A stretch of DNA of 64,000 bases from Candidatus Liminaster caballi (GTDB lineage: Bacteria; Bacteroidota; Bacteroidia; Bacteroidales; UBA3663), in contig JAGHUA010000061.1 of NCBI GenBank assembly GCA_018065085.1, positions 8,991 through 72,990 of the forward strand. Reading direction: 5' to 3'. This document shows positions 15,873 through 64,000 of this stretch, piece after piece (within the stretch, counting starts at the first letter, position 1; every line of letters begins with the position of its first letter). Under the pieces are notes generated by a model. It was not told where the DNA came from. It searched no databases and worked only from the letters and a program-made list of their open reading frames with translations. A program made the position numbers and the translations under genes.

Positions 15873-16111
15873 CGATTAAATTTACGGATAATTCATAAAA
15901 TTCATGGGTAATTTATGGAAATTCGTGTAAAGAAAGAAAAAAAAATTACGATTAAATTCACGGGTAATTCATGAAAATTCGCGTTAAGAAAGACAGAGAG
16001 TTTTAAACGTAAATGACCGCGAATTAGCCGCGAATTATTTCGTGAATTATGGATTTTGAACACAAATTATCACGAATGAACCATAAATTATTCAAAAAAA
16101 ATTCATGAATT
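15873..16111. repeat. Dyad-symmetric block of phased AATTCRYG-type octamers with 21-bp subrepeats
   Basis: Direct repeats 15873-15937 and 15949-15993. AATTYRYG-type words start at 15890, 15899, 15910, 15920, 15944, 15955, 15966 and 15976. Their reverse complement YRYRAATT starts at 16018, 16029, 16041, 16061, 16071, 16082 and 16104. Confidence 0.7.
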
Positions 16112-16167: not shown

Positions 16168-16503
16168 GAAAGTTTCATTTGGATTTCCCAAGTCTTCGGA
16201 AATGCCGCAGAAAGTTTCATTTGGATTTCCCGAGTCTTCGGAAGTGCCGCCGAAAGTTTCTTTGGGATTTCCCAACTCTTAGGAAATGCCGCAGAAAGTT
16301 TCTTTAGGATTTCCCGAGTCTTAGGAAATGCCGCCGAAATTTTCATTTGGATTTCCCGAGTCTTAGGAACTGCTGGCGAAAGTTTCATTTGGATTTCCCG
16401 AGTCTTAGGAAATGCTGGCGAAAGTTTCATTTGGATTTCCCAACTCTTAGGAAATGCCGCCGAAAGTTTCTTTGGGATTTCCCAGCTTTCTGGAAACGCT
16501 CTT
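16168..16503. repeat. Tandem array, 8 units of exactly 42 bp (family A)
   Basis: Units start at 16168, 16210, 16252, 16294, 16336, 16378, 16420 and 16462. Consensus GAAAGTTTCATTTGGATTTCCCRAGTCTTMGGAAATGCCGCM. No spacers and no indels. Confidence 0.95.
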
Positions 16504-18059
16504 TAGACAACAGCCTCTATAAGCGTGCGGCCTTTCAACACTACAGGAGGCAGCAAACCAGATTGCTTGGTCTTGTTGAAGCAGAAACTAAGGAGATATC
16601 CTTCTTGCAGGTCGAAATATTCAAGATAACGGCAGAGTTGTTCCTCACCACGCTCATTGTAAGCGTTGCCTCTCCAGATCTTCAGTTCGATGACGTATTG
16701 TCTGCCGAGGTAGTCGATGACTACGTCCATACGGTCGTGGTCGCGTGTCTGTTCTTCGATGTGATAGCTGCCCACTCCGTTGATGACAGGACGCAGGTAG
16801 GTAAGGAACACCTTGCGTGCATCGTTCTCAATGAATTCGTTGTCATGATCCATCTTGTAGGTCTGGTTCATGTGGACGATGAAACGTTGCATTAGGAGAG
16901 GAATGTCCAGAATGCCGTCGTGGATAAACTGACTCTTGTCGGTCATGCCCTGAATAAAGTCGGCAGAATTCTTATCCTGTGAGATGAAGTATTCGTAAAA
17001 CCAAATCTCAAACATGCGGCATGCAACGGCAAATGCGCCATTCTGCTGCTTGACGAAGTTGAACATCAGAGCGAGGTTGGTAGCTTTGTCGTAATAATTG
17101 AATGAATAGCGATAGCCATTGAAAAGCACGCCCCTGATAGTACGCTCCAATTCTGGGAACTCATCAAGTTTCTTGGCAATGTCATCAAACAGAGTACTAC
17201 CCTCGGTCAGTATTTTGTTCACCGCCTTCAGCACACCATCTTTATTCCATGTCCACTGTTCTGCATCGATAATCTGGCAGATGCGGCTCACGAGGAATGG
17301 ATAGCCGGAGGTGTAGTCGCGGATCATCTGAGCGACAGCCTTCTCGTCAAAGTCCAAACCGTGATCAGCTTTGTATTCAGCCAGCATTCCTGCAATACCT
17401 TCTGCCGACAGACTCATATCGACATCGAAGGGAACGGCGATGTTCCAAGGGCTGTTGTATTGGTGTTGATCCTCTGGACGAATCTTAAGTTTAAGGTTCT
17501 TGACATCATAGACACCAGCGAGGATGACAGATTGGAAGGTAGGATGACTGTCGCGATTAAGAAACATGCTTCGCAATCCTCCGAGGAATTTGATGAAGCC
17601 GTCATTATTGCCCGCCTGATCTACTTCGTCAATCAAAACGACAACCGGTTTTGAAGACAGTTCACAAAGTTCAGCCACAATGTCGGTAAAATCAAAGTTG
17701 TCAACAGACTTCAAACCTCTTGGTGCAACCTCTTCAAGTAGTTCCTTGACTTTGTCGTCTTTGGGTGCAATGCGTGTTTCGCGTCTCAATAACCTAAGGA
17801 ATGCAGCATTTGCTGTTGCGGCATCCAGAAAGTAATTGTCATCAACACCTTCAAAACTAATACTGAATACGAGATACTCATCTGATAGATGCTTTCTGAT
17901 AGCCTCCAACGTCGTTGTTTTGCCATACTGCCTGCCGCGATTTATGCAGAAATAGTCACCCTTGGTCACCATCTTTCGGATGATTTCCAGACGTTCGGTG
18001 ATGTCCACCATATAGTGTTCATTAGGGCGACAGGTGCCCGCTGTGTTGAATGTTTTCAT
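16503..18059 (-). CDS. AAA-ATPase-like protein with C-terminal PD-(D/E)XK nuclease-like domain (Bacteroidales multi-copy family)
   Basis: P-loop NRGRQYGKTT, Walker B VVVLIDEVD, and C-terminal DVVIDY...YVIELKIW (D...ELK nuclease motif). The ATG at 18059 is preferred over the TTG at 18098 because a -7 box lies at 18096-18103. Confidence 0.75.
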   Translation of the reverse strand: MKTFNTAGTCRPNEHYMVDITERLEIIRKMVTKGDYFCINRGRQYGKTTTLEAIRKHLSDEYLVFSISFEGVDDNYFLDAATANAAFLRLLRRETRIAPKDDKVKELLEEVAPRGLKSVDNFDFTDIVAELCELSSKPVVVLIDEVDQAGNNDGFIKFLGGLRSMFLNRDSHPTFQSVILAGVYDVKNLKLKIRPEDQHQYNSPWNIAVPFDVDMSLSAEGIAGMLAEYKADHGLDFDEKAVAQMIRDYTSGYPFLVSRICQIIDAEQWTWNKDGVLKAVNKILTEGSTLFDDIAKKLDEFPELERTIRGVLFNGYRYSFNYYDKATNLALMFNFVKQQNGAFAVACRMFEIWFYEYFISQDKNSADFIQGMTDKSQFIHDGILDIPLLMQRFIVHMNQTYKMDHDNEFIENDARKVFLTYLRPVINGVGSYHIEEQTRDHDRMDVVIDYLGRQYVIELKIWRGNAYNERGEEQLCRYLEYFDLQEGYLLSFCFNKTKQSGLLPPVVLKGRTLIEAVV

Positions 18060-18095
18060 ATCTGATGTAGCGAAAAGTGTACTCTCTATGCCTTG

Positions 18096-18103
18096 CAAAT
18101 ATA
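18096..18103 (-). promoter_or_regulatory. Bacteroidetes -7 promoter box (TATATTTG on the minus strand)
   Basis: The plus strand reads CAAATATA. Lies 37 nt upstream of the ATG at 18059. Confidence 0.45.
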
Positions 18104-23261: not shown

Positions 23262-24578
23262 TTACTTCTTCAGCTTCTGCGATGCCTCTTTTGTAAATAC
23301 AGAGACGCTTTCGAAGAATGATGAGGTCTTGGACTTTATGCTGTCGATGAGGCCAGGAGCTTTGTCATCGATATATTTGCCAGTAGCAGAGACGGCTTCG
23401 GTGACTGTTTCGCCTGTTGCCTTCGACGCATCCTTAATGGCTTCTTTCGCTACCTTGGCTTTTTCTTTCGTAGCGCTATAATATGATGATGTGGCGTCAG
23501 AAGTTTCTTTTGCTGCATCCTTGACACCATCTGTTACAGTCTCTGTTCCATCTTTGACGGCATCGACGGCTGTTGTAGATGCATCGACTACAGCATCGGT
23601 TGCATCGACGATGGTGGTTTTGGCATCATCAATCAGATCGCTGACCTTGTCAAGAACCTGAGCATCGGCAGTATGGAGGGCGAATGTCATGGCAAAGGCG
23701 CAGACGGAAAGGAGGAACCGTTTGGCGAGAGGCGCAAACTCCTCGATGCGACGGTCACGCAGGAACGGCCACCAGCGGCGTACGTTTTCAGATCGTTTCA
23801 TGTCGATCTCGACAATCATAAGCGTCGGTTCTGTGCCAGCCTCTGCAAGGAACTCGCCCTGAGGACCAGCCACAAACGAATGTCCCCAGAACTCGATGCC
23901 GTTGGTCTGACCGGATGGGTCGGACTCCCAGCCGCAGCGATTCACGGCAATGACTGGCAATCCGTTGGCAACGGCATGTCCGCGCTGAACTGTCTGCCAT
24001 GCGCCAAGCTGACGCTGTTTCTCTTCCGGCGTGTCGCTGCTCTCCCAACCGATGGCAGTAGGGTAGATGAGAAGTTCGGCTCCGCGCAGGGCCATGAGAC
24101 GCGCGCCTTCGGGATACCATTGATCCCAGCAGACCTGTACACCAAGACGTCCGACGGATGTCTGAATTGGGTTGAACCCGAGATCGCCCGGAGTGAAATA
24201 GAATTTTTCATAGTAGGCAGGATCGTCGGGGATGTGCATCTTGCGATACTGTCCGGCAATGCTTCCATCCTTTTCGAACACAACTGCTGTATTATGATAG
24301 AGACCGGCAGCGCGACGCTCGAACAGGCTTGTGACGAGCACAACTCCACATTCGGCGGCAATCTGCGAGTAGAATTCTGTGGAAGGACCGGGAATTGGTT
24401 CGGCAAGATCGAAGTTGTTGGTGTCCTCCACCTGGCAGAAATAGAGCGAGTTGTGGAGTTCCTGCAGAACGACCAGTTCTGCGCCCTGAGCTGCTGCGCG
24501 GCGGATGTCTGCGGCAAGATCCTGCATGTTCTGTGTGACATCGGCTGTCTTGGCCTGCTGTATGAGTGCTACTTTCAT
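23262..24578 (-). CDS. aguB: N-carbamoylputrescine amidase-like C-N hydrolase fused in frame to a signal-peptide-like segment and an Ala/Thr/Asp/Lys-rich tail
   Basis: The first ~295 aa carry nitrilase-superfamily motifs (VVLQELH, VCWDQWYPEGARL, ending WPFLRDRRIEEFAPLAKRF). The ORF then continues with LLSVCAFAMTFALHTADAQ and ~125 aa of low-complexity sequence. Confidence 0.7.
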   Translation of the reverse strand: MKVALIQQAKTADVTQNMQDLAADIRRAAAQGAELVVLQELHNSLYFCQVEDTNNFDLAEPIPGPSTEFYSQIAAECGVVLVTSLFERRAAGLYHNTAVVFEKDGSIAGQYRKMHIPDDPAYYEKFYFTPGDLGFNPIQTSVGRLGVQVCWDQWYPEGARLMALRGAELLIYPTAIGWESSDTPEEKQRQLGAWQTVQRGHAVANGLPVIAVNRCGWESDPSGQTNGIEFWGHSFVAGPQGEFLAEAGTEPTLMIVEIDMKRSENVRRWWPFLRDRRIEEFAPLAKRFLLSVCAFAMTFALHTADAQVLDKVSDLIDDAKTTIVDATDAVVDASTTAVDAVKDGTETVTDGVKDAAKETSDATSSYYSATKEKAKVAKEAIKDASKATGETVTEAVSATGKYIDDKAPGLIDSIKSKTSSFFESVSVFTKEASQKLKK

Positions 24579-24590
24579 ATTCTATATGGG

Positions 24591-24671
24591 GAAGTTAAAG
24601 GAGTTAAAGGAGTTAAAGGAGATAAAGAAGTTAAAGAAGTTAAAGAAGATAAAGGAGATAGGGCAGATAAA
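24591..24671. repeat. 9-bp microsatellite, 9 units (GRAGWTAAA)
   Basis: GAAGTTAAA GGAGTTAAA GGAGTTAAA GGAGATAAA GAAGTTAAA GAAGTTAAA GAAGATAAA GGAGATAGG GCAGATAAA. Lies between the GH2 stop (24680) and the aguB start (24578). Confidence 0.9.
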
Positions 24672-24679
24672 GACGTTTG

Positions 24680-27433
24680 TTAGGGGAGTTTCGGCTTGAG
24701 TTCATCAGGCGAATCGTTGGTGAACATATTTACAGGGCCGGTCTCCATATTGAAGAAATGGCTTACGGTCTCGACATCGAGAGTGAGTGACGGACGGAAG
24801 TCATCGCTATGCATATAGTCAATGATGGCATTGCGCATCTGTCGGGCCACAAGACGCGAGTCAAGGTCGGACTCAATGTCGATGGTGGTGATGAGCAGAC
24901 GGCCGTTGAGCACATTTGCCTCGACCATCATGCCGAGTTTGCGGCTTACGTGCCATGTGTCGATAGGCTGGATGGGCGACTGATAGTCCTTTGGCAGTTC
25001 GAGAAGGTTCATGACCTGAGCCTTGTTGACAAGTTCCCACCAGTTGATGTTGGTCCAAGAGTCGGTAGGGAAGCCGTGGGCAAAGAGTGGATGCTGCTGG
25101 TCGATGTAGGCGCCGGTGGTGTGAGGCGGACGCATCTTGAACCAGCTGGTATTCCAGAACACAGGCAGATAATGCTGCACAACATCCTTGCCAAGCGTGA
25201 CGCGACCGGCAGCCGCAATCAGCACCGTGCCGCCGCGTTTCAGGGTCTTGATCGCCTTCTCGTCGAGACTGTTGGCGATGTAGATTCCCTTGGTCTTGGA
25301 CAGTTTCTGCTGCGGATAGACCCAGAAGTCCCAGGTGTTGAATGCCGAACCATCGACATCAACGCGCAGCGTGAGCTTGGACGGACTTGTGATGTCGGTC
25401 AGAGCGACGGCAACCTCGCCAAGAGCGATGTTCTTGCCCACAGGAATGTCCTTGACGCAGAGAGTGTCGCGGCGGAGAAGCGAACCGTCGGCAAAGGCGA
25501 TGGAGTAGGTGCAAGCGGCACGGCTGATGATGCCCGAACCGGCATTCATGACCTCGACGGGAACGTTGAGGGTTTCGCCTGCGCCGAACACAAACTTAGG
25601 GAAACGTGCAAGCGGCACGACAGGCTGGCAGAACTGACGCCACTGGTCGGCATTGCAATAACCCTTCTCAAGCCAGTGTACGTTGAGCACGCCTTCGAGT
25701 GCCGTACCCTGTCCGCTGTAGTCGTTGAGACCCAGGAGCTGGAAACCGGCATAGTCGGCCGTGCGCATGTTACGCTCAATCTCGTATTTATAGCACAGCG
25801 TCTGCAACATGCCGCTTGCCATGAGGAAAGGCTCTGCCATCTGTGTCATGCCGTTGTCGGCGAGCAGGTCGCGGAAGATCTCGAAATTACGGGCTTTGTA
25901 TGCACCTGTATATTGATCAATCTCCTTGAAGTCGGGGAACGCGCACCACTGTCCCTGTTCGTGGGCGATGATTGGCGTCTGGTTTGGCACCGAGTCCTTA
26001 TAGTTGCGTGGGAAGAGAATCTGACGGTAATAGTCATCGGCCGACTGCGGAGCATTATCGTCCCAACTAAGACCGCGCGCACCGCCCTTGACATGATACT
26101 GACTGCCATCGTCCCATGCCCAGCCGCCGCCGACACTTGCGCCGCAATAGACTCTCGACGCATCGTAGTCGTGCATCTTGCTGACCCAGTCGTTGCAATA
26201 TCTGACCCATCCGCCGGCAGGTTCGTTGCCAGCCGCCATCATGACGAGCGACGGATGATGGCCGTAAGTGTCGATGATGCTCTTGGTCTCGGACAGGAGA
26301 TACTTGTCGATGCTCATGCGCGAATTGAGTTTCACGCCGTGATTAGGCCATGACGGGCCTTCGGGCTGAAGGTAGATGCCAAGGCGGTCGGCAGCCGTGA
26401 AAGCTGCATCAGGCGGACAATAGCTGTGGAAGCGGACATGGTTGATGCCATATTCCTTGCATTTGCCCAACACGCGCATCCATGACTCGACATCGGTCGG
26501 CGGATAGCCGGTCTCAGGGAAACAGCAGTTCTCCACCGTGCCGCGCATCCAAATGGGATGTCCGTTGAGCAGGAACTGGCGATGGTCGATGGCAATCTCG
26601 CGCATACCGAATGTCACGTCGATAGCCATGCCGCGATAAACGACCGTGCGTGTGTGGAGCACAGGATGGAACTCGTCCCACGGTTCGGCATCCTTGCCCA
26701 TGTCGATCATGTAGGTCGTATCGTTGATTTGAATCTCGACCGAATGAGAGGCGAGATGCGGGATGACGTTCTTACGATAGATGAGAGGTCGGCGTTGCAG
26801 TTCGATGCGGCCTGCGATGCCGTTCCAGTTGCCCTGAGTCTGGTCGGTCACGCTGTGGGAGTCCTGTCCGACGCAAACGTTCTCTATACCATTATATATA
26901 TATATGAGTATTTCGTTGGACTGACCGGCGCGGATGTGGGACGTGAGATCGTACTGATGAGGCACAGACAGCGACATCTGATGACCGATGCTGTCGCCGT
27001 TGACAAACACGGTGGTCTCGATGTGAGGGCGTTCTAGGTAGAGCGTGACTGGCTGACCCTCCCAATCGGCAGGCACATCGATGGTACGGGCATAACAGGC
27101 TGTGCCGACGTAATGGCGTTCGGGCGTAAGGAAGAATGGGAACTTCATCTCGCCGTCATGCCTGTAGGCCTCCATGCGCGGATTGTAGTAGAACGACGAG
27201 TCGTAGAGCGAACCCGTCCATTGAGTGCCGACGGTCACAAGGTCGCCCTTGCCGTTGGTAAGCATGGAACCGGGCAGCGAGATATTGTCATCGAGAGTGG
27301 CAGACGGTCCCATTGAGAACCGCCATACGCCGCTAAGGTCGATGACGTCAGTGGAACAAATCTCCGTGCCCCATGCATCGCACAAGGCAAAAGAAACCAG
27401 AAGTGAAAAGACGAGACAGCGGAGATTTGTCAT
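24680..27433 (-). CDS. Glycoside hydrolase family 2 protein (beta-galactosidase/beta-glucuronidase-like)
   Basis: The ORF opens with a TTG at 27496, but a signal-peptide-like start MTNLRCLVFSLLVSFALCDA lies at 27433. Contains a GH2 sugar-binding-like N-terminus and TIM-barrel segments (NHVRFHSYCPPD, MMAAGNEP). Confidence 0.8.
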   Translation of the reverse strand: MTNLRCLVFSLLVSFALCDAWGTEICSTDVIDLSGVWRFSMGPSATLDDNISLPGSMLTNGKGDLVTVGTQWTGSLYDSSFYYNPRMEAYRHDGEMKFPFFLTPERHYVGTACYARTIDVPADWEGQPVTLYLERPHIETTVFVNGDSIGHQMSLSVPHQYDLTSHIRAGQSNEILIYIYNGIENVCVGQDSHSVTDQTQGNWNGIAGRIELQRRPLIYRKNVIPHLASHSVEIQINDTTYMIDMGKDAEPWDEFHPVLHTRTVVYRGMAIDVTFGMREIAIDHRQFLLNGHPIWMRGTVENCCFPETGYPPTDVESWMRVLGKCKEYGINHVRFHSYCPPDAAFTAADRLGIYLQPEGPSWPNHGVKLNSRMSIDKYLLSETKSIIDTYGHHPSLVMMAAGNEPAGGWVRYCNDWVSKMHDYDASRVYCGASVGGGWAWDDGSQYHVKGGARGLSWDDNAPQSADDYYRQILFPRNYKDSVPNQTPIIAHEQGQWCAFPDFKEIDQYTGAYKARNFEIFRDLLADNGMTQMAEPFLMASGMLQTLCYKYEIERNMRTADYAGFQLLGLNDYSGQGTALEGVLNVHWLEKGYCNADQWRQFCQPVVPLARFPKFVFGAGETLNVPVEVMNAGSGIISRAACTYSIAFADGSLLRRDTLCVKDIPVGKNIALGEVAVALTDITSPSKLTLRVDVDGSAFNTWDFWVYPQQKLSKTKGIYIANSLDEKAIKTLKRGGTVLIAAAGRVTLGKDVVQHYLPVFWNTSWFKMRPPHTTGAYIDQQHPLFAHGFPTDSWTNINWWELVNKAQVMNLLELPKDYQSPIQPIDTWHVSRKLGMMVEANVLNGRLLITTIDIESDLDSRLVARQMRNAIIDYMHSDDFRPSLTLDVETVSHFFNMETGPVNMFTNDSPDELKPKLP

Positions 27434-27583
27434 AGCGTAGGGAATCGGATCCGATTTTTGAAAAAACATGGCGATTATTGTACTATAATTCGGCAATTTG
27501 AATAAAAATGCTTATATTTGCCGCGGTAATTTGAATGAAACACTAATATCATCAATCACAAATCACAAATCATCAATCATAAT

Positions 27584-29938
27584 TTATTTGTCGAGTGTGA
27601 ACTTTGCAAATTTAAGAAGAAGAGTTTTGTCGCCCATAGTGTCGAAGTGAACGTTGATGCGGGCATTGTCGGCTGTGCCAGAAAGGTCGGTGATGGTGCC
27701 TTTGCCGAAACGGTCGTGTACGATGCGAGTACCTTTCTCAAGCAGGTGACCGCCAAAGGTTATGGACGTCTCGTGGCTAAGGGCATCGGTAGGACGTGTG
27801 GCCACCTTGCGCGGATGGTTGAGGTCTAAGACGGAACGGCGAGGCTGTTCTGCCGGACGCTGAGGCTCAGGCCGATAGGAGTTGCTGAATGTGCCAACTG
27901 TTCGTGACTCTCCGAATGTACCTCCGCCGGTAGAAAAGCCTCCGTCGCCATAGCTGGAAGTGGGCGAGCTGAGTGTCTGCACAAATCGCTGGTCAATGTC
28001 CTTGAGGAAACGACTCGGACGGCAGGCTTTTGACTGACCATTGCGGAAACGTGAACGGGCATAGCTGAGGAAACAGTTCTGTTCGGCACGTGTGATGGCA
28101 ACGTAGAAGAGTCGGCGCTCTTCCTCCACGCCGTTCGGTTCGTCGATCGACATGTCGGACGGCAGGAGATCCTCCTCGATGCCCACGATAAAGACATTCT
28201 GGAACTCCAGACCCTTGGCCTGATGGATGGTCATCATCGCTACGTAGTCGTGATTGGTATTTTCGTCCTCATTAGGCTCTACATCACCCGACAGAGAAAC
28301 GTCGGCGAGGAAATCGACCAACTGGGTGTGTTCGTTGCCCTCCTCTGCGCCCGAAATGACGAATGTCTGGATGGCGGTGAGCAGTTCCTCGACATTCTCA
28401 CGGCGAGACTTAGCCTCGATGCTCGTGTCACCAGCCAGGTCAGCCTTGATGCACGATTCGATGACAACGCGGCTGGTCAGTTCGTAGGCATTGAGCGTCT
28501 GGTTGAGCTCTTGGAAATGGCGTATCATCTGGGCAAAATCGGTCAGTTTCTTCTCCGTGCCACGGTTCACAGCCACACTGTGACCCACGGGATCGCTGCA
28601 AACCTCAAAGAGATTGGTGCCTGTGGTGCGCATAGCCTCGACAAGTTTGCCCACGGTGGTGTCGCCGATGCCGCGAGCCGGATAGTTGACAACGCGCTTG
28701 AACGACTCCTCGTCGGCAGGATTGATGATGAGACGCAGATAGGCGAGTACGTCCTTGATCTCCTTGCGCTGGTAGAACGACAGACCACCGAAGATACGGT
28801 ATTCGATGCCACGCTTGCGCAACGCTTCCTCAAGAGTGCGGCTCTGGGCGTTGGTGCGATAGAGCACGGCGCAGTCGGCATAGTGAAATCCTTCCTGCTT
28901 ATGGAGGGCTTCGATGCGCTGGGCCACCTGATAGGCTTCCTCAAGGTCGCTGTAACTGCCGGAAAGGCGCAACAAAGAGCCGCGTTCCTTTTGGCTGAAA
29001 ATGGTCTTGCGTATCTGTTCGCGGTTCTTCGAAATAAGGCTGTTGGCGGCATCGACGATGTTCTGTGTCGAACGGTAATTCTGTTCGAGTTTGAATATTT
29101 TGATGTCTGGAATTTGCTTGCTTAAATCCAGGATATTTCTAATATTTGCTCCGCGAAACGAATAGATGCTCTGAGCGTCATCACCGACGACGCACAGATG
29201 ACGATGCTGACGTGACAGCTGTTCGACGATCATGTGCTGAGCGCGGTTGGTGTCCTGATACTCATCGACGAGGACATATTTAAAATAATCCTGATAGAAT
29301 TGCAGTACGTCGGGATGGTCGCGGAAGAGGATGTTGGTGTAGAGCAGGAGATCGTCAAAGTCCATAGCCCCGGCCTGCTGGCATCGGTTCCAATAGTTTA
29401 CATAAATCTCTGACGTGCGCGGACGGCGTGCCTGCTGGTCGTACATGATCAACTCGCGGTTGGCCATATACATGCTGGGCGTGACGAGGTTATTCTTGGC
29501 GTTGCTGATGATGGCCTGAATGGAATTAGGCTTATACTGCTTATCGTCGAGGCCCATCTCCTTGATGATAGCCTTGACCAGATTGCGTGAGTCCTGCTGA
29601 TCGTAGATGGTGAAGTCATGCGGGAAACCGATGCGCTCTGCCTCACGGCGCAGGATGCGGCTGAAGAGCGAGTGGAACGTGCCCATCCAAAGACGGCGTG
29701 CGCGACCTGCTCCGACGAGTTCCTGGATACGGTTCTGCATCTCGGTGGCAGCCTTCTTGGTGAAGGTGAGAGCGATGATATCCGATGGTTCGTAGCCGTG
29801 TTGCAACAGGTAGGCAATCTTCATTGTCAGCACTCGGGTCTTGCCTGAACCAGCTCCTGCAATAACAAGTTGCGGGCCGTCGCAGTATTCTACGGCAGCC
29901 CTTTGTGCAGGATTCAAAGAATCGAGATAGTTTTCCAC
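27584..29938 (-). CDS. ATP-dependent DNA helicase, UvrD/PcrA/Rep family
   Basis: 784 aa. Helicase motifs LNPAQRAAVE, AGAGSGKTRVLT, VLVDEYQDTN, TIHQAKGLEF and YVAITRA. Confidence 0.9.
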   Translation of the reverse strand: MENYLDSLNPAQRAAVEYCDGPQLVIAGAGSGKTRVLTMKIAYLLQHGYEPSDIIALTFTKKAATEMQNRIQELVGAGRARRLWMGTFHSLFSRILRREAERIGFPHDFTIYDQQDSRNLVKAIIKEMGLDDKQYKPNSIQAIISNAKNNLVTPSMYMANRELIMYDQQARRPRTSEIYVNYWNRCQQAGAMDFDDLLLYTNILFRDHPDVLQFYQDYFKYVLVDEYQDTNRAQHMIVEQLSRQHRHLCVVGDDAQSIYSFRGANIRNILDLSKQIPDIKIFKLEQNYRSTQNIVDAANSLISKNREQIRKTIFSQKERGSLLRLSGSYSDLEEAYQVAQRIEALHKQEGFHYADCAVLYRTNAQSRTLEEALRKRGIEYRIFGGLSFYQRKEIKDVLAYLRLIINPADEESFKRVVNYPARGIGDTTVGKLVEAMRTTGTNLFEVCSDPVGHSVAVNRGTEKKLTDFAQMIRHFQELNQTLNAYELTSRVVIESCIKADLAGDTSIEAKSRRENVEELLTAIQTFVISGAEEGNEHTQLVDFLADVSLSGDVEPNEDENTNHDYVAMMTIHQAKGLEFQNVFIVGIEEDLLPSDMSIDEPNGVEEERRLFYVAITRAEQNCFLSYARSRFRNGQSKACRPSRFLKDIDQRFVQTLSSPTSSYGDGGFSTGGGTFGESRTVGTFSNSYRPEPQRPAEQPRRSVLDLNHPRKVATRPTDALSHETSITFGGHLLEKGTRIVHDRFGKGTITDLSGTADNARINVHFDTMGDKTLLLKFAKFTLDK

Positions 29939-29993
29939 GTGGGGAAATGTTTGTGTGTTAATGTCGTGTGATGTTTGAGAATGCCGGTCGGAA

Positions 29994-31739
29994 TCAGAAA
30001 CGGAAACCGAGGGTAAGGTTCCAGTCCATCACACGGCTCTTCATTTCGATATGGTCGCCCTTAACGGCTCCGTCAGCCTCGTCCTGACTCATTCTGGTGC
30101 CAATGTATGCATCGGTGGTAGGGTAGGCTGCGATGACTTCGTTCGACATGCGGTTGACGAAAGCGAGGTCGATGAACCAGTGTTCGCCACGCCAGCCGAG
30201 ACCGGCTGTGATATACTGCTGATTGTCGAGCAGCGAGTAGTTAGGCTTGGTCGATGAGTCGAAGAGCAGAGTGTTGTCATCGTTAGGCATCGGATTGCGG
30301 CTGGCATCGACATCCATGAATCCACGGCTAACGCCACCCTGCAGCATCTCGCTCTTGAACGGCGATGTACGGTAGGCATAGCCAAGACGGGCACTCAGAT
30401 TAGGGAGGATACGATATTCACCGCCCACCTTGATGGTGTGCTGAAGGGCGGCATTGTCCTTCATGAGACTGTTGGTGCGGTCGTAGATCGAAGTATCCCA
30501 CTCATAATCGTCGGTATAGAACTTCTGAGATGTGAAGTCCTTCATGTCGTACTCCACGCTGATCAGTCCCTTGCGGCCAAGGATGGCGGCAAAGCTTACC
30601 TGATATTCCCAAGGCGAGAAATAGCGGTAGTCATACTCGTAGGTTCCGCCGCCCGAATAGTCGGTGTTCTCAGGTGCATCGGTGATCATTCGGCCCGAAT
30701 AGATATCGGTCATGTGCATCCATGTAGGAGTGTGGACAGCCACGCCGATGCGGAAAGCGTCAGACGGACGGATGATGATGCCTGCCTTGAGGTTGACGCC
30801 CGAACCCTTTGTCTCTATGTCATTCTGATATTCGGTGTAAGGACCTGCGTAGTTGCGCTGATAATCCTCGTTGAACTCAGTCGAGACGAATGAGTTAAAG
30901 TCGCTGATGCTCAGGGTAAGACCGCCGTAGATCATGTCGTCCCAGTTGCCTGAGAGACTGATGTTATACTCGTCGTTGCGGTTCTGCTCCCAGACCTTAA
31001 GGCGCTGGAACGTGCCTTCGACCAGTCCGTCAGGGTTGGCGGTATTGTATGCCTCCACGCCGTCGAAGCCCAGCGGTTTGTTGCCGGGACCGTAGCCGGT
31101 GGCGCGGTTGTCGATGGCAAGACAGTCGTAGCCAAAGATGGCTGTGAGTGGGAAATCATTGTCCTCCCAGCCGCCATTGACGTCGCCCATGTAACCGGGA
31201 TCGCCCATCAGTCCCTTGTAGCGGAGCATGTTGTTGGAACGTGTGGCAAGATACTGTCCGAACGAACTGCGCGGATTGTTCAGCACCATCTGATAGCGGC
31301 GGTTGGTGCCGGCCGAGTGGTTGAATCCCACGCCGACGTTGAAGTTGACAAGATGTTCGCATGTGGGAGTCTTGAAAGAAGCCACGTAAGCGAGGTTATC
31401 GACGGCAAAGTCGGTCTTGTTGATCTTATGTTCGAGCGAGGCATTGACAGTAGTGCGGTTGAGCGAGAGCGACGGAGAGAAGCTCATCATGTTCGTGCCG
31501 CGAAGCACAGCGATGCCAGCAGGATTGTCGCCCATGCACGATACGTCACCGCCCACGGCTCCCATGGCTCCTGCCATCGACATGTAGCGGGCAGAACCTG
31601 TGATGTCTGTCGATCCGAATCGTGTGGCATCGGCCATGTTCTGTGCGTTGGCAGCTGCCATTGCCGAGATGCCGAGGATCGATGTGAAGAATAGTCTATT
31701 GTTAAGTATGTGTCTCATTTTCGTCAATAATAAAGTCAT
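29994..31739 (-). CDS. Outer-membrane beta-barrel protein, FadL/PorV-like
   Basis: 581 aa with a signal peptide (ISAMAAANAQ). N-terminal SARYMSMAGAMGAVGGDVSCMGDNPAGIA is typical of FadL/OMPP1-type barrels. Ends in aromatic LTLGFRF. An alternative start lies at 31718. Confidence 0.55.
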   Translation of the reverse strand: MTLLLTKMRHILNNRLFFTSILGISAMAAANAQNMADATRFGSTDITGSARYMSMAGAMGAVGGDVSCMGDNPAGIAVLRGTNMMSFSPSLSLNRTTVNASLEHKINKTDFAVDNLAYVASFKTPTCEHLVNFNVGVGFNHSAGTNRRYQMVLNNPRSSFGQYLATRSNNMLRYKGLMGDPGYMGDVNGGWEDNDFPLTAIFGYDCLAIDNRATGYGPGNKPLGFDGVEAYNTANPDGLVEGTFQRLKVWEQNRNDEYNISLSGNWDDMIYGGLTLSISDFNSFVSTEFNEDYQRNYAGPYTEYQNDIETKGSGVNLKAGIIIRPSDAFRIGVAVHTPTWMHMTDIYSGRMITDAPENTDYSGGGTYEYDYRYFSPWEYQVSFAAILGRKGLISVEYDMKDFTSQKFYTDDYEWDTSIYDRTNSLMKDNAALQHTIKVGGEYRILPNLSARLGYAYRTSPFKSEMLQGGVSRGFMDVDASRNPMPNDDNTLLFDSSTKPNYSLLDNQQYITAGLGWRGEHWFIDLAFVNRMSNEVIAAYPTTDAYIGTRMSQDEADGAVKGDHIEMKSRVMDWNLTLGFRF

Positions 31740-31748
31740 TTGGAATGC

Positions 31749-32855
31749 TTATCGGCGACCGCCGCGTGAACCGCCACCGCCTACACTGCCGCTGCTGCGC
31801 GAAGGAGCGCTGTATGAACTGCTGCTGCGTGTCGGGCTGCTGCTGCGCGAAGGTGTGCTGTAGGATGAAGTTGAGCGGGAACTCTGCGTAGGAGTACTCT
31901 GTGTGCCACGGTATGCCGAGCTGTTGCTGGTGCGGTTAGTGGTATTTGTCTCGCGGCTGGCGGCCTTGGTGCGCTGGGTCACAGCCTGACGTGTGGCATT
32001 GGCCGAACTTGTGCGGTTGGTGTTGGCTGAGCTTGTGCGGTTGGTCGAAGCCTTGCGACCGGTGGTTGCAGCCGGAGTGGCTGTGGGGCGGGATGTTGTG
32101 CCGGCATTGCCACGCATATTGCTCATGCCGCGCATGTTGCTGTTGCGAGCCACCGATGTGCTGCTAAATCCGCGATGATTGGCTGTGAGCGGAGTGCGTG
32201 TGTTGCTGCCCACGTTGTTGCGGTTGCCACGGTTGCGGTGGTTGATGGTGTTACCCCAGTGTGAACCGCCGACGCCGACCGATGTGCCTGGACCGAAGTG
32301 ATGCGGCTGGAGTGGGTAGTATGGAGAATACCAACCGCCGTACCATCCTGCATAGTAGCCAGGATTCCAGCCCACATACCATGAACCCCAGTGATAGCCG
32401 AAGCTTGGTGTGCGCCACCACCATGGATCCCAATAGCAGTAATCCCAGTAGAATGGGTCATAGTAGGCCACATCATACCAAGGAGAATAGGCATAGAATC
32501 CGAACAGAGAGTTGTGGAAACGGTGGATGCGGTAGCTGTAGGCATAAGGATCGACCTCCACCTCCTTGACCACGAGTATAACGGTGTCGCGCTGTGTCTT
32601 GGCATTGCCCAGGAGGGACGCAGCCTTGGTGTCGTCATCGTCAGACGAGGTGAGCGAGGCGTCACCGCGACGGTTGTAGGCGTCGATGTCCCAGTCGTCG
32701 TTGGCATCGGTGCTCCAATCTTCTGTGGCTTCATATATTGCTTTCTTTGCTGCCTTCTTGCTGAAATAGATGTCGTCATCAACCTCTGCGCGTGCAGGAG
32801 TTGTAACCGAAACGGCAAGCATTGCTGCCATCAATGAGATAATCAACTTTTTCAT
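31749..32855 (-). CDS. Secreted Trp/Tyr-rich protein with a Ser/Thr/Arg/Asn-rich low-complexity tail
   Basis: 368 aa with a signal peptide (AVSVTTPARAE) and a DDDIYF motif. Has an aromatic block YYDPFYWDYCYWDPWWWRTPSFGYHWGSWYVGWNPGYYAGWYGGWYSPYY. The C-terminal ~170 aa are S/T/R/N repeats. Lies directly upstream of the beta-barrel gene. Confidence 0.6.
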   Translation of the reverse strand: MKKLIISLMAAMLAVSVTTPARAEVDDDIYFSKKAAKKAIYEATEDWSTDANDDWDIDAYNRRGDASLTSSDDDDTKAASLLGNAKTQRDTVILVVKEVEVDPYAYSYRIHRFHNSLFGFYAYSPWYDVAYYDPFYWDYCYWDPWWWRTPSFGYHWGSWYVGWNPGYYAGWYGGWYSPYYPLQPHHFGPGTSVGVGGSHWGNTINHRNRGNRNNVGSNTRTPLTANHRGFSSTSVARNSNMRGMSNMRGNAGTTSRPTATPAATTGRKASTNRTSSANTNRTSSANATRQAVTQRTKAASRETNTTNRTSNSSAYRGTQSTPTQSSRSTSSYSTPSRSSSPTRSSSSYSAPSRSSGSVGGGGSRGGRR

Positions 32856-32974
32856 AACGCGTATTTGTTTTGTGGTTCTTTGCCAATATGACCCCGATAT
32901 TGCAAATAGGTTTAATTTTGCGGTTCGGAATTATTTTTTTATTATTTGCGCGACAAAAATAAGAAAAAAGTACG

Positions 32975-32982
32975 TATCTTTG
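32975..32982 (+). promoter_or_regulatory. Bacteroidetes -7 promoter box (TATCTTTG)
   Basis: Matches TAnnTTTG 100 nt upstream of the prmA ATG. Confidence 0.4.
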
Positions 32983-33081
32983 CGCACGAAACAGTGACTT
33001 TAACTATTTTTTTAGTGTTTTTTTACACTTCACACGCAATTAATAATAGTTTTACAACATATTTTTAAGCATTTTCGCACT

Positions 33082-33885
33082 ATGAATTACATCGAACTGA
33101 CCGTCTCCATCGACCCAATGAGCGAGGACAACGCCGACATTCTTGCTGCCATGCTGGCTCCGCTCGGCTACGACAGTTTCTCGACCGAGGAGGACTGCCT
33201 GAAGGCCTATTGTCCGCAAAATATGTTCGACGCCTACAGCCTCACCGACTGTCTGGCTGAGTTCCCCATCGACGGAGTGAAGTTCGACTGGTGGCAGCAT
33301 GAGGTCGAGACGCAGGATTGGAACGCACAATGGGAGTCGGAACATGCAACCGAACCTATCGCGTTCGGCGAACATACCATCGTGATTCATCCGCACATGT
33401 CGTTTGGCAGCGGTCATCATGAGACCACCTCCCAGCTGCTCGGCGAGATCGGCCGACAGCAGCTCGATGGCAGGACGGTGCTTGATATGGGCACGGGAAC
33501 AGGTGTCCTTGCCATTGCCGCAGCGCTCAAGGGAGCCACACATGTGCGTGCCATCGAGATTGACGACTGGGTGGCTGACAACGCACGCGACAATGTCCTT
33601 GCCAATGATCTGGCGGGCCGCATCGTGGTGGAATGCGGAGATGCGGCGCTTCTGGCTGACGGCATGATGTATGACCTCGTGCTTGCCAACATCAACCGCA
33701 ACGTGCTCCTCGCCGATATGGAGGCCTACGTATCGCACATGAACAGCCAGGCCACCCTGCTGATGAGCGGATTCTATGAGGCTGACGTACCTGCGATACG
33801 CCAGTGTGCCGAGGCGCTTGGATTGACCTACATCGCACATCAGAGCATGAACGACTGGGTGGTGATCCGTTTTCAGAAAAATTGA
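33082..33885 (+). CDS. prmA: Ribosomal protein L11 methyltransferase
   Basis: 267 aa with a PrmA-type N-terminus (YIELTV...) and the SAM-binding motif VLDMGTGTGVLAIAAALKGA. Confidence 0.85.
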   Translation: MNYIELTVSIDPMSEDNADILAAMLAPLGYDSFSTEEDCLKAYCPQNMFDAYSLTDCLAEFPIDGVKFDWWQHEVETQDWNAQWESEHATEPIAFGEHTIVIHPHMSFGSGHHETTSQLLGEIGRQQLDGRTVLDMGTGTGVLAIAAALKGATHVRAIEIDDWVADNARDNVLANDLAGRIVVECGDAALLADGMMYDLVLANINRNVLLADMEAYVSHMNSQATLLMSGFYEADVPAIRQCAEALGLTYIAHQSMNDWVVIRFQKN

Positions 33886-33894
33886 TCAGACATT

Positions 33895-34455
33895 ATGATA
33901 CCGGAACTCGAAAACCGCAAGTGGAAGGTGCTTGAAAGCCAGCGCCTGTTGAACAAGGGAACATGGATGAACCTGCGTCAGGAACGTGTGCAACTGCCTT
34001 CGGGCAGCATCGTGCCTGAATGGTTCGTGCTCGAATTTCCTGATTGGATCAATGTGATTGCCATCACCAAGGACGGACATTTCGTCATGGAGGATCAGTA
34101 TCGCCATGCCCTCGGACAGACACACTTTGAACTCGTGGCTGGCGTGATCGACCCGGGTGAGACTCCGCTCGAAGCTGCCAAACGTGAGCTCAGCGAGGAG
34201 ACGGGCTTCGGCGGCGGCAACTGGTCGCTGTTCATGACCGTTTCGCCCAACCCGACCAACCACACCAATCTCAGCTACACTTTCCTCGCTACGGACGTTG
34301 AGAAACTGTCCGATCAGCATCAGGAGGCAACGGAGGACATACATGTGGACATCTTCACTCGTGACGAGGTGCTCGAACTGCTCAACACGGGCAGGATCAT
34401 TCAGGCTTTGCACATTGCGCCTCTCTGGAAGTATTTCGCTACTACAGGCAAATGA
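33895..34455 (+). CDS. NUDIX hydrolase (ADP-ribose pyrophosphatase-like)
   Basis: Nudix box GVIDPGETPLEAAKRELSEETGF. Confidence 0.9.
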   Translation: MIPELENRKWKVLESQRLLNKGTWMNLRQERVQLPSGSIVPEWFVLEFPDWINVIAITKDGHFVMEDQYRHALGQTHFELVAGVIDPGETPLEAAKRELSEETGFGGGNWSLFMTVSPNPTNHTNLSYTFLATDVEKLSDQHQEATEDIHVDIFTRDEVLELLNTGRIIQALHIAPLWKYFATTGK

Positions 34456-34754
34456 ATCTCCTGTTCTCCAACCCTCGTATGTTGTGCGTTGTAATCGCGT
34501 ACCTTGTCATTGTCAGCCTTGTCACTTTCATCGCATACGGCATTGACAAATGGAAAGCGCGTCGCCAGCGCTGGCGCATCCCGGAATCTGCTCTTATCTG
34601 GCTGGCGGTTGCCGGTGGTTCCATCGCCGCGCTTTTTGCCATGCGCCTGTTTCATCACAAGACTCTGCACAAGAAATTTACTATTGGCATTCCTGTCATT
34701 CTTCTCGCTCAGCTTGCTCTGACTGCTTACCTTATCTTCGGAAATGCCAAATAA
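34452..34754 (+). CDS. DUF1294-family small membrane protein
   Basis: 100 aa. The segment IAYGIDKWKARRQRWRIPESALIWLAVAGGSIAALFAMRLFHHKTLHKKF is characteristic of DUF1294. Overlaps the Nudix stop by 4 nt. Confidence 0.8.
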   Translation: MNLLFSNPRMLCVVIAYLVIVSLVTFIAYGIDKWKARRQRWRIPESALIWLAVAGGSIAALFAMRLFHHKTLHKKFTIGIPVILLAQLALTAYLIFGNAK

Positions 34755-34760
34755 CCTGTT

Positions 34761-35121
34761 TTGGTTACATCTAAGAGTTGGGAACTAACCAAAAAAAGTC
34801 TGGCGGTTAGATTTAAGACTTGGGAACTAACCAAAATAATGTTTTTGGTTAGAACTAAGAGTTGGGAACTAACCAAAATAATGTTCTTGGTTAGAGTTAA
34901 GAGTTGGGAACTAACCAAAATGGTGTGCTTTGGTTAGAACTAAGAGTTGGGAACTAACCAAAATAATGTTTTCGGTTAGAACTAAGAGTTGGGAACTAAC
35001 CAAAATAATGTTCTTGGTTAGAACTAAGAGTTGGGAACTAACCAAAATAATGTTTTCGGTTAGAACTAAGACTTGGGAACTAACCAAAATAATGTTCTTG
35101 GTTAGAACTAAGAGTTGGGAA
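34761..35121. repeat. Tandem array, 8.5 units of 42 bp (family B), each unit hairpin-forming
   Basis: Units start at 34761, 34803, 34845, 34887 (43 nt), 34930, 34972, 35014, 35056 and 35098 (truncated). Consensus TTGGTTAGAACTAAGAGTTGGGAACTAACCAAAATAATGTTC with the inverted repeat TTGGTTAG/CTAACCAA. Confidence 0.95.
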
Positions 35122-35135
35122 TAAGAAAAAATGGT

Positions 35136-36467
35136 TTATGCGAGCTCGATGTCGTGGAAGAAAAGAGTAGGGAAATAGCCGTCGGTTACTTTCTCGGTGT
35201 CGTTGGCTACTTCGGCAAGGTTCTGCCATAGGGAAAGGATGTTGCCGGTGATGTTCATACCGGCAATGCCTTGTATGCGTTCGCCATGACGGAAAAGCTG
35301 TGCCTCGATGCCGAACGAGAAGTCGCCGGTGGCCTCGTTGCTGTTGCCGCCAAGGAAACCTGTGATGAGAATGACGTCGGAAGGAGAAGAGTCGAGAATC
35401 TGCTGGCGAGAGCGAGTGCCTGGCTCGATGCAAAGGACATTGACACCGCTCAACGTAGGAGCGACTGACATCTTGCGGCTATAGTAAGTGCCAAAAAGAT
35501 AGGTGCAGAGACGTCCGTTGCGGATGATGTCGGTGGCAGAGGTACGCACACCCTCAAAGTCGAAGAGACAGGCTCCGTAAGCACCGTGATGCTGAGGTTC
35601 TTCGGTGATGGTGAGGATAGGAGAAGTGATGACAGAGTCGAGACGGTCGATGAGGAACGAGCGTTTCTGGTATAGGCTGTAGTCGGACATGGCATCGATG
35701 AGCGGACTTAACAGCTTCATGAGACATGTAGGCTCGACGGCAATAGTGTAACGGCCTGCAGGGACGGCACCTGAGCCAAGACGCCACAGGGCTGCATCGA
35801 GAGCCTTGCGACCGAGACCATCCAAAGCGGGCGAAAGACCTTTGAAGTCGATGGCATAGTCGAACCACCCGTCAGACGGACGAGAGTCGCCTTCGTCATG
35901 AAGGCTGACCGATGTGAAAGCATACGACTGACTGCAGAGACTCAGACCACGGAACCCCTGAGTGTCGGCAAGATATTGCCAGCCGCGACGATAGCCCAAT
36001 TGGGTAGAGACATTGATGATGCGACTGTCTGCACCAAGAATAGGAGCTCCGACAGAGAGTGCCATGGCAACAGGATCAAAGCGGTCATTGCCTTCCTCGG
36101 AATAATTGCCTAACGCAATGGCTTCAAGTCGGTTCTGCTGGAGCGATGAGGCCTGGTAGTATCTCTTTGGATCGGGCAGCGAACGGTCGGGGTCGGGTGT
36201 GAGAAGACGGGTGCAGGCAATGCCGCTGGAGATGAGCGAAAGAATCTCGCTGCGTTCAAGGCGGTTGGTGCTGTATGTGCCATAACGACCATCGACATAG
36301 AGACGCATGACGAGCGCACAGCTGCTGTTCTGCTGGAGGGTTGAGACCTCGGCATCGTCGCATTGCACATTGAGCATGTCGATGCAAGACAGTTCCACGC
36401 GGGCTGCCTGAGCGCCCATTGACAGGGCCTGGCTGATGGTCCAATCGGCTATATCGATGCGTTTCAT
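35136..36467 (-). CDS. pmbA: TldD/PmbA-family metalloprotease subunit (PmbA/TldE-like)
   Basis: 443 aa in the PmbA_TldD family pattern. Overlaps the tldD stop by 4 nt (ATGA). Confidence 0.8.
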   Translation of the reverse strand: MKRIDIADWTISQALSMGAQAARVELSCIDMLNVQCDDAEVSTLQQNSSCALVMRLYVDGRYGTYSTNRLERSEILSLISSGIACTRLLTPDPDRSLPDPKRYYQASSLQQNRLEAIALGNYSEEGNDRFDPVAMALSVGAPILGADSRIINVSTQLGYRRGWQYLADTQGFRGLSLCSQSYAFTSVSLHDEGDSRPSDGWFDYAIDFKGLSPALDGLGRKALDAALWRLGSGAVPAGRYTIAVEPTCLMKLLSPLIDAMSDYSLYQKRSFLIDRLDSVITSPILTITEEPQHHGAYGACLFDFEGVRTSATDIIRNGRLCTYLFGTYYSRKMSVAPTLSGVNVLCIEPGTRSRQQILDSSPSDVILITGFLGGNSNEATGDFSFGIEAQLFRHGERIQGIAGMNITGNILSLWQNLAEVANDTEKVTDGYFPTLFFHDIELA

Positions 36468-63856: not shown

Positions 63857-63899
63857 TTCGGCAGCATTCCCAATCGGGAGTGCTGCCGAATTCGTATTT
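63857..63899 (+). terminator. Rho-independent terminator after nifJ
   Basis: 13-bp stem (63859-63871 pairs with 63876-63888, one G-U pair) with a 4-nt loop, followed by a T-rich tail. Confidence 0.7.
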
Positions 63900-63908
63900 A
63901 ATTATTGC

Positions 63909-64000
63909 AAAACTTTCATTTGGACTTCCCAGGTCTTAGGAAATGCTAACAAAAGTTTCGTTTGGACTTCCCAAGTGTTCGGAAATGCTGCCGAAAGTTT
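63909..64000. repeat. Tandem 42-bp array, family A, second locus (truncated by the window end)
   Basis: Units run 63909-63950, 63951-63992, and from 63993 onward. Sequence AAAACTTTCATTTGGACTTCCCAGGTCTTAGGAAATGCTAAC / AAAAGTTTCGTTTGGACTTCCCAAGTGTTCGGAAATGCTGCC / GAAAGTTT..., in the same orientation as 16168-16503. Confidence 0.9.

Follow-up and report, generated by a model that had tools for sequence, protein, structure and literature searches.

A 42-bp tandem repeat between convergent genes of Candidatus Liminaster caballi shares a short core and its period with other arrays

MIRU and the pneumococcal BOX elements are dispersed families of intergenic minisatellites, with units of 40-100 bp and sub-families that share conserved blocks. 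MIRU units are sited between co-directional operon genes and have open frames in phase with the neighbouring genes, whose stop and start codons they overlap, and in BOX elements the boxA and boxC modules flank repeated boxB. In vertebrates, unrelated minisatellites reportedly share a 10-15-bp core, said to have been proposed by Jeffreys as a promoter of recombination and tandem duplication. STAR elements (Staphylococcus aureus repeat) combine a conserved core with a recurring sequence that is specific to the locus (PMC3532100). In REP superfamilies, an unpaired tag beside variable palindromes is the defining feature, and members are found mostly after genes or between convergent genes (PMC3733652), where REPs act as terminator or stabiliser elements (bioRxiv 10.64898/2026.03.23.713779). 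Within the Bacteroidales, BrickBuilt and PgRS/MITE464 of Porphyromonas gingivalis are intergenic minisatellites with 23-nt and 41-nt units (PMC4596501).

Here, we propose that a tandem array of Candidatus Liminaster caballi, referred to as array 2, is a member of a lineage-restricted, core-tagged family of 42-bp minisatellites at gene 3' ends, a reading to which we assign a probability of about 0.5. It is based on four arrays (one of them, array 3, incomplete) in two genomes: three in the 64,000-nt stretch of DNA analysed here (the window) and one in another Bacteroidales MAG. Each unit consists of a conserved 12-nt tag, AAGASTYGGGAA (the core), and about 30 nt of locus-specific filler, which is hairpin-forming in some families. 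The arrays are found at the 3' ends of genes, with a preference for convergent pairs; tag and period are common to them, and their fillers are unrelated. Array 2 and its immediate surroundings comprise:

34452-34754, plus strand: DUF1294 membrane-protein gene, its TAA stop (34752-34754) 5 nt before array 2
34760-35121, plus strand: array 2 (family 2), 8.6 head-to-tail units of 42 bp each, unit 4 being 43 bp
34930-35097, plus strand: duplicated 84-bp dimer in array 2 (units 5-6 and units 7-8), two copies that differ by 1 nt
35136-36467, minus strand: PmbA/TldD-family gene, its TAA stop (35136-35138) 14 nt after array 2
35158-35181, plus strand: unit-like stretch AGAA--AAGAGTAGGGAAATAGCC in the 3' coding end of the PmbA gene, with one mismatch in the core

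Array 2 is a genuine non-coding 42-bp tandem repeat. Its consensus unit is TTGGTTAGAACTAAGAGTTGGGAACTAACCAAAATAATGTTC, in which the core reads AAGASTTGGGAA on the plus strand. TRF places the array at 34757-35121 (period 42, 8.7 copies, 87% matches), and successive cores are spaced 42, 42, 42, 43, 42, 42, 42 and 42 nt apart; both results agree with an earlier note on this DNA, which had described a 42-bp tandem repeat with one 43-nt unit. The array was also said to fill the whole gap between its convergent neighbours, and indeed only 5 nt remain on the DUF1294 side and 14 nt on the PmbA side. All of its units run head-to-tail, and the alternating or inverted arrangement of REP/BIME elements was not seen. 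The sequences TTGGTTAG and TCGGTTAG alternate along the units and, in the phase of the earlier note, unit 7 matches unit 5 exactly, and a single nucleotide separates unit 8 from unit 6. The two dimer copies (34930-35013 and 35014-35097) are near-identical and the array has therefore grown recently by a two-unit step, as had been suggested.

Two independent Logan contigs (L039 and L012, run SRR10505694) enter array 2 from opposite flanking genes and stop inside it. Hence the edges of the array are real and not an artefact of assembly; the contigs support these edges, and the copy number is as in the assembled sequence alone. The exact flanking proteins were found in this one run only, the contigs of which break within arrays, and the PFOR protein (encoded next to array 3) is not on record. 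Such arrays break short-read assemblies and are therefore under-reported in MAGs.

Two more arrays occur in the window, the first of them beside an ATPase gene:

16168-16503, minus strand: array 1 (family 1), 8 units of 42 bp, with the minus-strand unit GGCGGCATTTCCTAAGACTCGGGAAATCCAAATGAAACTTTC
16503-18098, minus strand: AAA_35 / PD-(D/E)XK-type ATPase gene, its TAA stop directly abutting array 1
63908-64000, minus strand: array 3 (family 1 variant), at least 2.2 units, running into the window end

All 16 exact matches to the core in the 64-kb window fall within 16168-16503 and 34760-35121. With at most one mismatch there are 21 matches against 0.83 expected, and it is in this form, with one mismatch, that array 3 carries the core. 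Arrays 1 and 2 match exactly over at most 14 nt (TTCCCAACTCTTAG), with the two copies on opposite strands; this length was reached by 1 of 1000 column-permuted versions of array 1 (p about 0.001). Thus a core common to the two arrays in inverted orientation, as put forward in the earlier note, is upheld, and so are the presence of its G and C variants in both arrays and their equal 42-bp period (by TRF). Only three non-coding repeats with a unit of more than 20 bp occur in the window; all have a period of 42 and all carry the core. Together with the array of the other MAG (L008, described below), four arrays from two genomes have a period of exactly 42. The core was not found in 103 kb of related Bacteroidales DNA.

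The core positions that vary (S and Y) are the same two in families 1 and 2. In the family 2 array, 1 of the 12 core columns is variable against 13 of the other 30; in the family 1 array, the figures are 5 of 12 and 10 of 30, and the core is there not less variable than the rest. The similarity said to flank the core did not hold up, global alignment of the 30 non-core nt of arrays 1 and 2 giving p=0.26 against shuffles. Non-core similarity to L008 is likewise not significant (p=0.99 and 0.90).

Array 3 starts 76 nt past the PFOR stop, just beyond a 15-pair terminator hairpin (63857-63890). The loop of this hairpin holds TTCCCAATCGGGA, which has in common with the core, in reverse-complement orientation, its first 7 nt. 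A leader shared by arrays 1 and 3 was considered and rejected, as their left flanks do not align. To the left of array 1, 10 of the 12 exact AATTCRYG sites of the window cluster in 213 bp of AT-rich non-coding DNA (15899-16111), five on the plus strand and three on the minus strand, plus the palindromic AATTCATGAATT. A direct repeat of ~62 bp (15878-15940 / 15945-16000) is found at this cluster, which looks like a group of putative binding sites.

How widely is the core distributed? A scan for core-N29-31-core returned 11 loci in 596 Gb of genomes, 14 in metagenomes and 0 in viral contigs. All 25 loci lie inside tandem arrays, with a period of 20-21 or 41-44. Family-specific patterns searched in viral contigs, and BLAST against plasmids, gave nothing, and the literature yielded nothing relevant on the core sequence or on 42-bp repeats in Prevotella/Bacteroidetes. 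One option is that AAGAGTCGGGAA tags universal 21/42-bp arrays across phyla (Acidobacteria, Ruminococcaceae, Sulfuricurvum, Poribacteria and others), as the 25 genome and metagenome loci, several of which recur as families, could suggest. However, the search itself demanded a tandem repeat, for which 4-20 chance collisions are expected among the tandem repeats of 596 Gb (a rough estimate and not a computed control), not one base is conserved beyond the required 12-mer, the gene contexts vary (divergent, co-directional, coding) and the viral contigs held no match. We therefore judge the loci other than L008 (and perhaps L001) to be chance collisions with unrelated tandem repeats, and consider an element spanning these phyla very improbable.

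The AAGAGTCGGGAA-bearing repeat families of other phyla, which are probably unrelated to the window arrays, include L005, L009, L010, L014, L016 and L022 (Acidobacteria-like), L004, L018 and L024 (Ruminococcaceae), L003, L013 and L015 (Sulfuricurvum) and L002 and L007 (Poribacteria). Several have hairpins of their own, for example CTCCCCC-NNN-GGGGGAG, in a rumen family between murA and murG. In L001 (from a Bacteroidia MAG), 4.7 units of 42 bp form an array at 4038-4235; each unit is made of two 21-bp half-units, both with TCCCAACT(T)CT, and the array sits in a divergent promoter region.

L008 (Bacteroidales MAG SGB_3976) is a 42-bp array of 5.3 units that carries the core as AAGACTTGGGAA, the remainder of the unit being unrelated. 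The geometry of its unit is that of family 2 (core, 10-bp arm, 6-nt loop, 10-bp arm, 4 nt), and it lies between convergent genes for an ATPase (plus strand) and a patatin (minus strand). This ATPase (AAA_35/PD-(D/E)XK) is 63% identical over 483 residues to the ATPase beside array 1, and is closer to it than is the best 50%-cluster representative among 1.84 billion proteins (54%). The comparison of the two loci argues against a simple inherited module of ATPase gene and array: the orientation of the core relative to the ATPase gene is opposite in L008 and in the window, the flanks of L008 and array 1 have no homology beyond the ATPase coding sequence, and homologues without arrays exist. As four such homologues (51-55% identical) have no downstream array, a general link between this ATPase family and the arrays was rejected. 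The core match of L008 could still be due to chance, with about 0.3 chance matches estimated among Bacteroidales. On either side of the L008 array, at about 1700-1715 and 1960-1975, the 10-nt sequence GATCAGAAAT occurs as a direct repeat; the simplest reading is that it stems from degenerate units at the array edges and not from a target-site duplication.

The 8-bp inverted repeat TTGGTTAG/CTAACCAA that the earlier note had seen in each unit of array 2 proved to be unusual, being reached by 16 of 2000 shuffled units. Folding of unit dimers gives z = -2.1 and -2.8, and folding of the whole array z = -7.0 and -7.4 (two strands). In the predicted centroid of the minus strand, hairpins with 10-bp stems and 6-nt loops follow one another, joined by 16-nt linkers that bear the core. 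Hairpins reach significance in family 2 and in L008, the units of which accord with the imperfect 20-40-bp palindrome of REP/BIME elements; units of family 1 and array 3 do not. The inverted repeat of family 1 has 6-bp arms (ATTTCC/GGAAAT), was reached by 274 of 2000 shuffles (z of -1.6 and -0.4) and does not form a significant hairpin; in array 3 it is still weaker. A hairpin function therefore cannot be general. In addition, the arms of family 2 enclose a 16-nt stretch with the entire core, and those of family 1 overlap the GGGAA of the core, so that the arms of the two families do not occupy homologous positions. Hence the idea of covariation around a conserved loop cannot be retained: the arm positions are not equivalent, the family 1 repeat is not significant, and the arm variants of array 2 (TCGGTTAG, TTGGTTAC and GCGGTTAG) show no compensating change.

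No site resembling an intrinsic terminator was found inside array 2, where the stems are AT-rich and have no T-run after them. Canonical terminators (hairpin and T-run) of this genome follow the FucI-like, CN_hydrolase and PFOR genes, and the three genes that touch arrays (ATPase, DUF1294 and PmbA) have no canonical terminator. Rfam gave no match for the array at the gathering threshold, and at E<=1 just a spurious mir-1422 (23 bits against a gathering score of 60).

Might the arrays then work as RNA? As REP-like 3'-end elements, their transcribed hairpins would stop transcription, or hold off 3' exonucleases, at the ends of both genes, and the tag would be a single-stranded linker for an RNA-binding protein or RNase. 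This would suit the beads-on-a-string fold predicted for array 2 minus-strand RNA (10-bp hairpins, 16-nt tag linkers), the identical geometry of L008 (10/6/10 plus a 16-nt linker), flanking genes that have no canonical terminators, and the precedent of REPs (bioRxiv 10.64898/2026.03.23.713779). We nonetheless regard it as doubtful, in that family 1 and array 3 have no significant structure, G-U pairs favour the folding of one strand in family 2 and of the other in L008, and T-tracts are missing after the stems.

With respect to location, 2 of the window's 4 convergent junctions hold an array, against none of its 38 other junctions (hypergeometric P=0.007), a bias that the earlier note had proposed to check. 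The PmbA protein is recorded once, and its next relatives are 71-72% identical. In the relatives examined (L027-L033 and L040), a CN_hydrolase gene of the same direction lies 6-48 bp downstream of PmbA, and these PmbA loci contain no core and no tandem arrays with units >21 bp; the PmbA of array-less relatives is 62-72% identical to that of the window. The CN_hydrolase orthologue of the window, at 23262-24578, has 91-93% amino-acid identity to those of the relatives, and is 438 aa long against 290 aa owing to a C-terminal extension. Since the two genes are adjacent in the relatives and apart in the window, a segment has been interposed between them:

24579-35135, no strand assigned: 10.6-kb segment between PmbA and its ancestral neighbour CN_hydrolase, with array 2 as the PmbA-side junction

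Array 2 is thus located exactly at a synteny breakpoint, or rearrangement junction. The segment carries genes for GH2, UvrD, two unknown proteins, PrmA, NUDIX and DUF1294. At its other junction, a 9-bp tandem repeat (24589-24677; AGTTAAAGG/AGATAAAGA, about 9 copies) fills the 101-bp gap from the GH2 stop to the CN_hydrolase start. No transposase or recombinase was found among the 30 of about 43 window genes that were scanned. The ORF at 31749-32855 encodes a secreted protein of 368 aa with no Pfam match, a W/Y/G-rich middle and a long S/T/N/R-rich low-complexity tail, and has short tandem repeats at 31819-31853 and 31999-32045.

These comparisons bear on whether the arrays are under any constraint. 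They could be neutral junk minisatellites, derived from one progenitor or from a gene-converted short tract, with the core and period as a historical residue that has neither constraint nor function. The lack of similarity outside the core, a family 1 core as variable as its filler, uncompensated arm variants, relatives without arrays and the tolerance of insertions in gaps between gene 3' ends would all be accommodated. We consider this unlikely: uniform decay should not spare a perfect block of 12-14 nt amid saturated divergence, an exact 42 bp in four arrays of two species is not expected, and the same two core positions vary in both families. The earlier note had proposed a repeat superfamily under length and core constraint, and of this proposal a core shared beyond chance and a common period stand, and the non-core similarity and covariation fall. 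It had also held that the proposal would fail if the core were the sole similarity and also common genome-wide, or if arrays in close relatives were absent or of arbitrary period; the core is in fact the sole similarity but is restricted to the arrays within the window, and the relatives examined have no arrays. We conclude that the proposal is partly supported: the arrays are related, and their core and period look constrained.

The unit-like stretch of the PmbA gene (22-24 nt) has a local-alignment p of about 0.007, a post hoc value for one of 7 flanks tested. It encodes a conserved GYFPTLFF motif that is also present in array-less relatives, so the resemblance to the unit predates array 2; it might reflect seeding or targeting. 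A second one-mismatch core match lies within the PmbA coding region, at 35387-35398. A more far-reaching option, which we think quite improbable, is that the tag is recognised by a trans-acting protein, which would build or maintain 42-bp arrays in helical phase, de novo, at core-like sequences as well as rearrangement junctions, with filler taken from local or arbitrary sequence. Such a process would explain why the arrays have only tag and length in common, why array 2 has as its neighbour a core-like, FPTL-coding PmbA sequence that was there before it, and why two arrays adjoin orthologous AAA_35/PD-(D/E)XK ATPase-nuclease genes. If true, it would represent a repeat-generating or repeat-binding system previously undescribed in Bacteroidales.

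Might the units instead be translated, either as C-terminal extensions through stop-codon read-through or as remnants of coding repeats? A 42-bp unit corresponds to 14 codons. Each of the ATPase, DUF1294 and PmbA genes is in frame with the sole stop-free frame of the adjoining array (3 of 3, p=1/27, post hoc), and in families 1, 2 and L008 the open frame translates the core as K-[ST]-[WR]-E. However, the patatin gene of L008 is out of frame, which leaves 3 of 4 genes in frame (p about 0.11), the 43-bp unit breaks the frame of array 2, and differences between units are mostly non-synonymous. Moreover, all three stops are TAA, and the array translations have no homologues among 5.8 billion proteins. 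A coding hypothesis was therefore rejected as extremely unlikely, despite the in-frame open frames.

Returning to a lineage-restricted, core-tagged minisatellite family, how might its arrays arise and persist? One or two units at a time would be gained or lost through slipped-strand mispairing or unequal recombination, and concerted evolution would homogenise the filler within an array and permit drift between arrays. Recognition by a trans-acting factor may keep the tag and the 42-bp length, which amounts to four helical turns; by analogy with the GTAG tag of REPs, a DNA-binding protein or a nuclease would be the likeliest such factor. Transcripts that enter the family 2 array from either of its neighbouring genes would form a hairpin string in place of the missing intrinsic terminators, and this string could act as a 3'-UTR barrier or stabiliser shared by both genes.

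Should constraint indeed hold for the tag and the precise 42-bp length, with the remainder of the unit left free, the arrays would be the footprint of a sequence-specific factor in a poorly sampled Bacteroidales lineage, with DNA-binding proteins, nucleases and RNA-processing enzymes as candidate kinds. The arrays may act as shared 3'-end insulators of convergent genes and as sites of genome rearrangement. They may also be of use as strain-typing (VNTR) markers.

How does array 2 compare with the systems described at the outset? Unlike MIRU and BOX, the arrays here lie between convergent genes and have no flanking modules; in this convergent setting, the in-frame open frames have no downstream gene to which they could couple. 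The vertebrate minisatellite core of Jeffreys differs in being eukaryotic, GC-rich and Chi-like. A CRISPR array was rejected, as the entire 42-bp units repeat with no unique spacers, and a scan of 30 window proteins showed no cas domains. Like BrickBuilt and PgRS, the arrays are dispersed, multi-copy and species-restricted, with no match in Rfam (PMC4596501). However, those repeats lie inside MITEs that have a leader, a tail and IS5-type terminal inverted repeats, and their unit sequences are unrelated. A MITE with an internal minisatellite was accordingly rejected for array 2, where the longest inverted match between the 120-nt flanks is 6 nt, which is chance level; leader or tail segments were not found, the flanks of array 2 being only 5 and 14 nt and the left flanks of arrays 1 and 3 being unalignable.

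With REP/BIME elements, the arrays share variable palindromes (in family 2 and L008) with a conserved unpaired tag at one end, a position after genes and between convergent genes, and a proposed role as terminators or stabilisers (PMC3733652; PMC2817692; bioRxiv 10.64898/2026.03.23.713779). REPs differ in having a 4-nt tag, in occurring singly or as inverted pairs and in their link to a RAYT transposase, none of which is seen here. There is no GTAG or CGTC beside the arms, where REPs carry such a tag (PMC3733652) and these arrays carry AAGASTYGGGAA; no RAYT (Y1 transposase) was found among the 30 window proteins scanned (64 kb of genome); and family 1 has no significant palindrome.

STAR elements are likewise intergenic direct repeats, with a short core (14 bp in STAR) at ~40-bp intervals and a locus-specific recurring sequence; their loci expand and contract, they are lineage-restricted and their function is unknown (PMC3532100). 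The core of STAR, however, is GC-rich and unrelated (TNTGTTGNGGCCCN), its host is a Firmicute, and its cores stand 'at least 40 bp' apart, against a strict 42-bp unit here. As the array core does not match the 14-bp STAR core T(G/A/T)TGTTG(G/T)GGCCC(C/A), the likeness is one of architecture only (PMC3532100). Membership in STAR, REP, BrickBuilt/PgRS or MIRU thus fails on tag sequence, orientation, terminal inverted repeats or gene context. Array 2 is a new yet fairly ordinary dispersed bacterial minisatellite, and its architecture has precedents among these systems.
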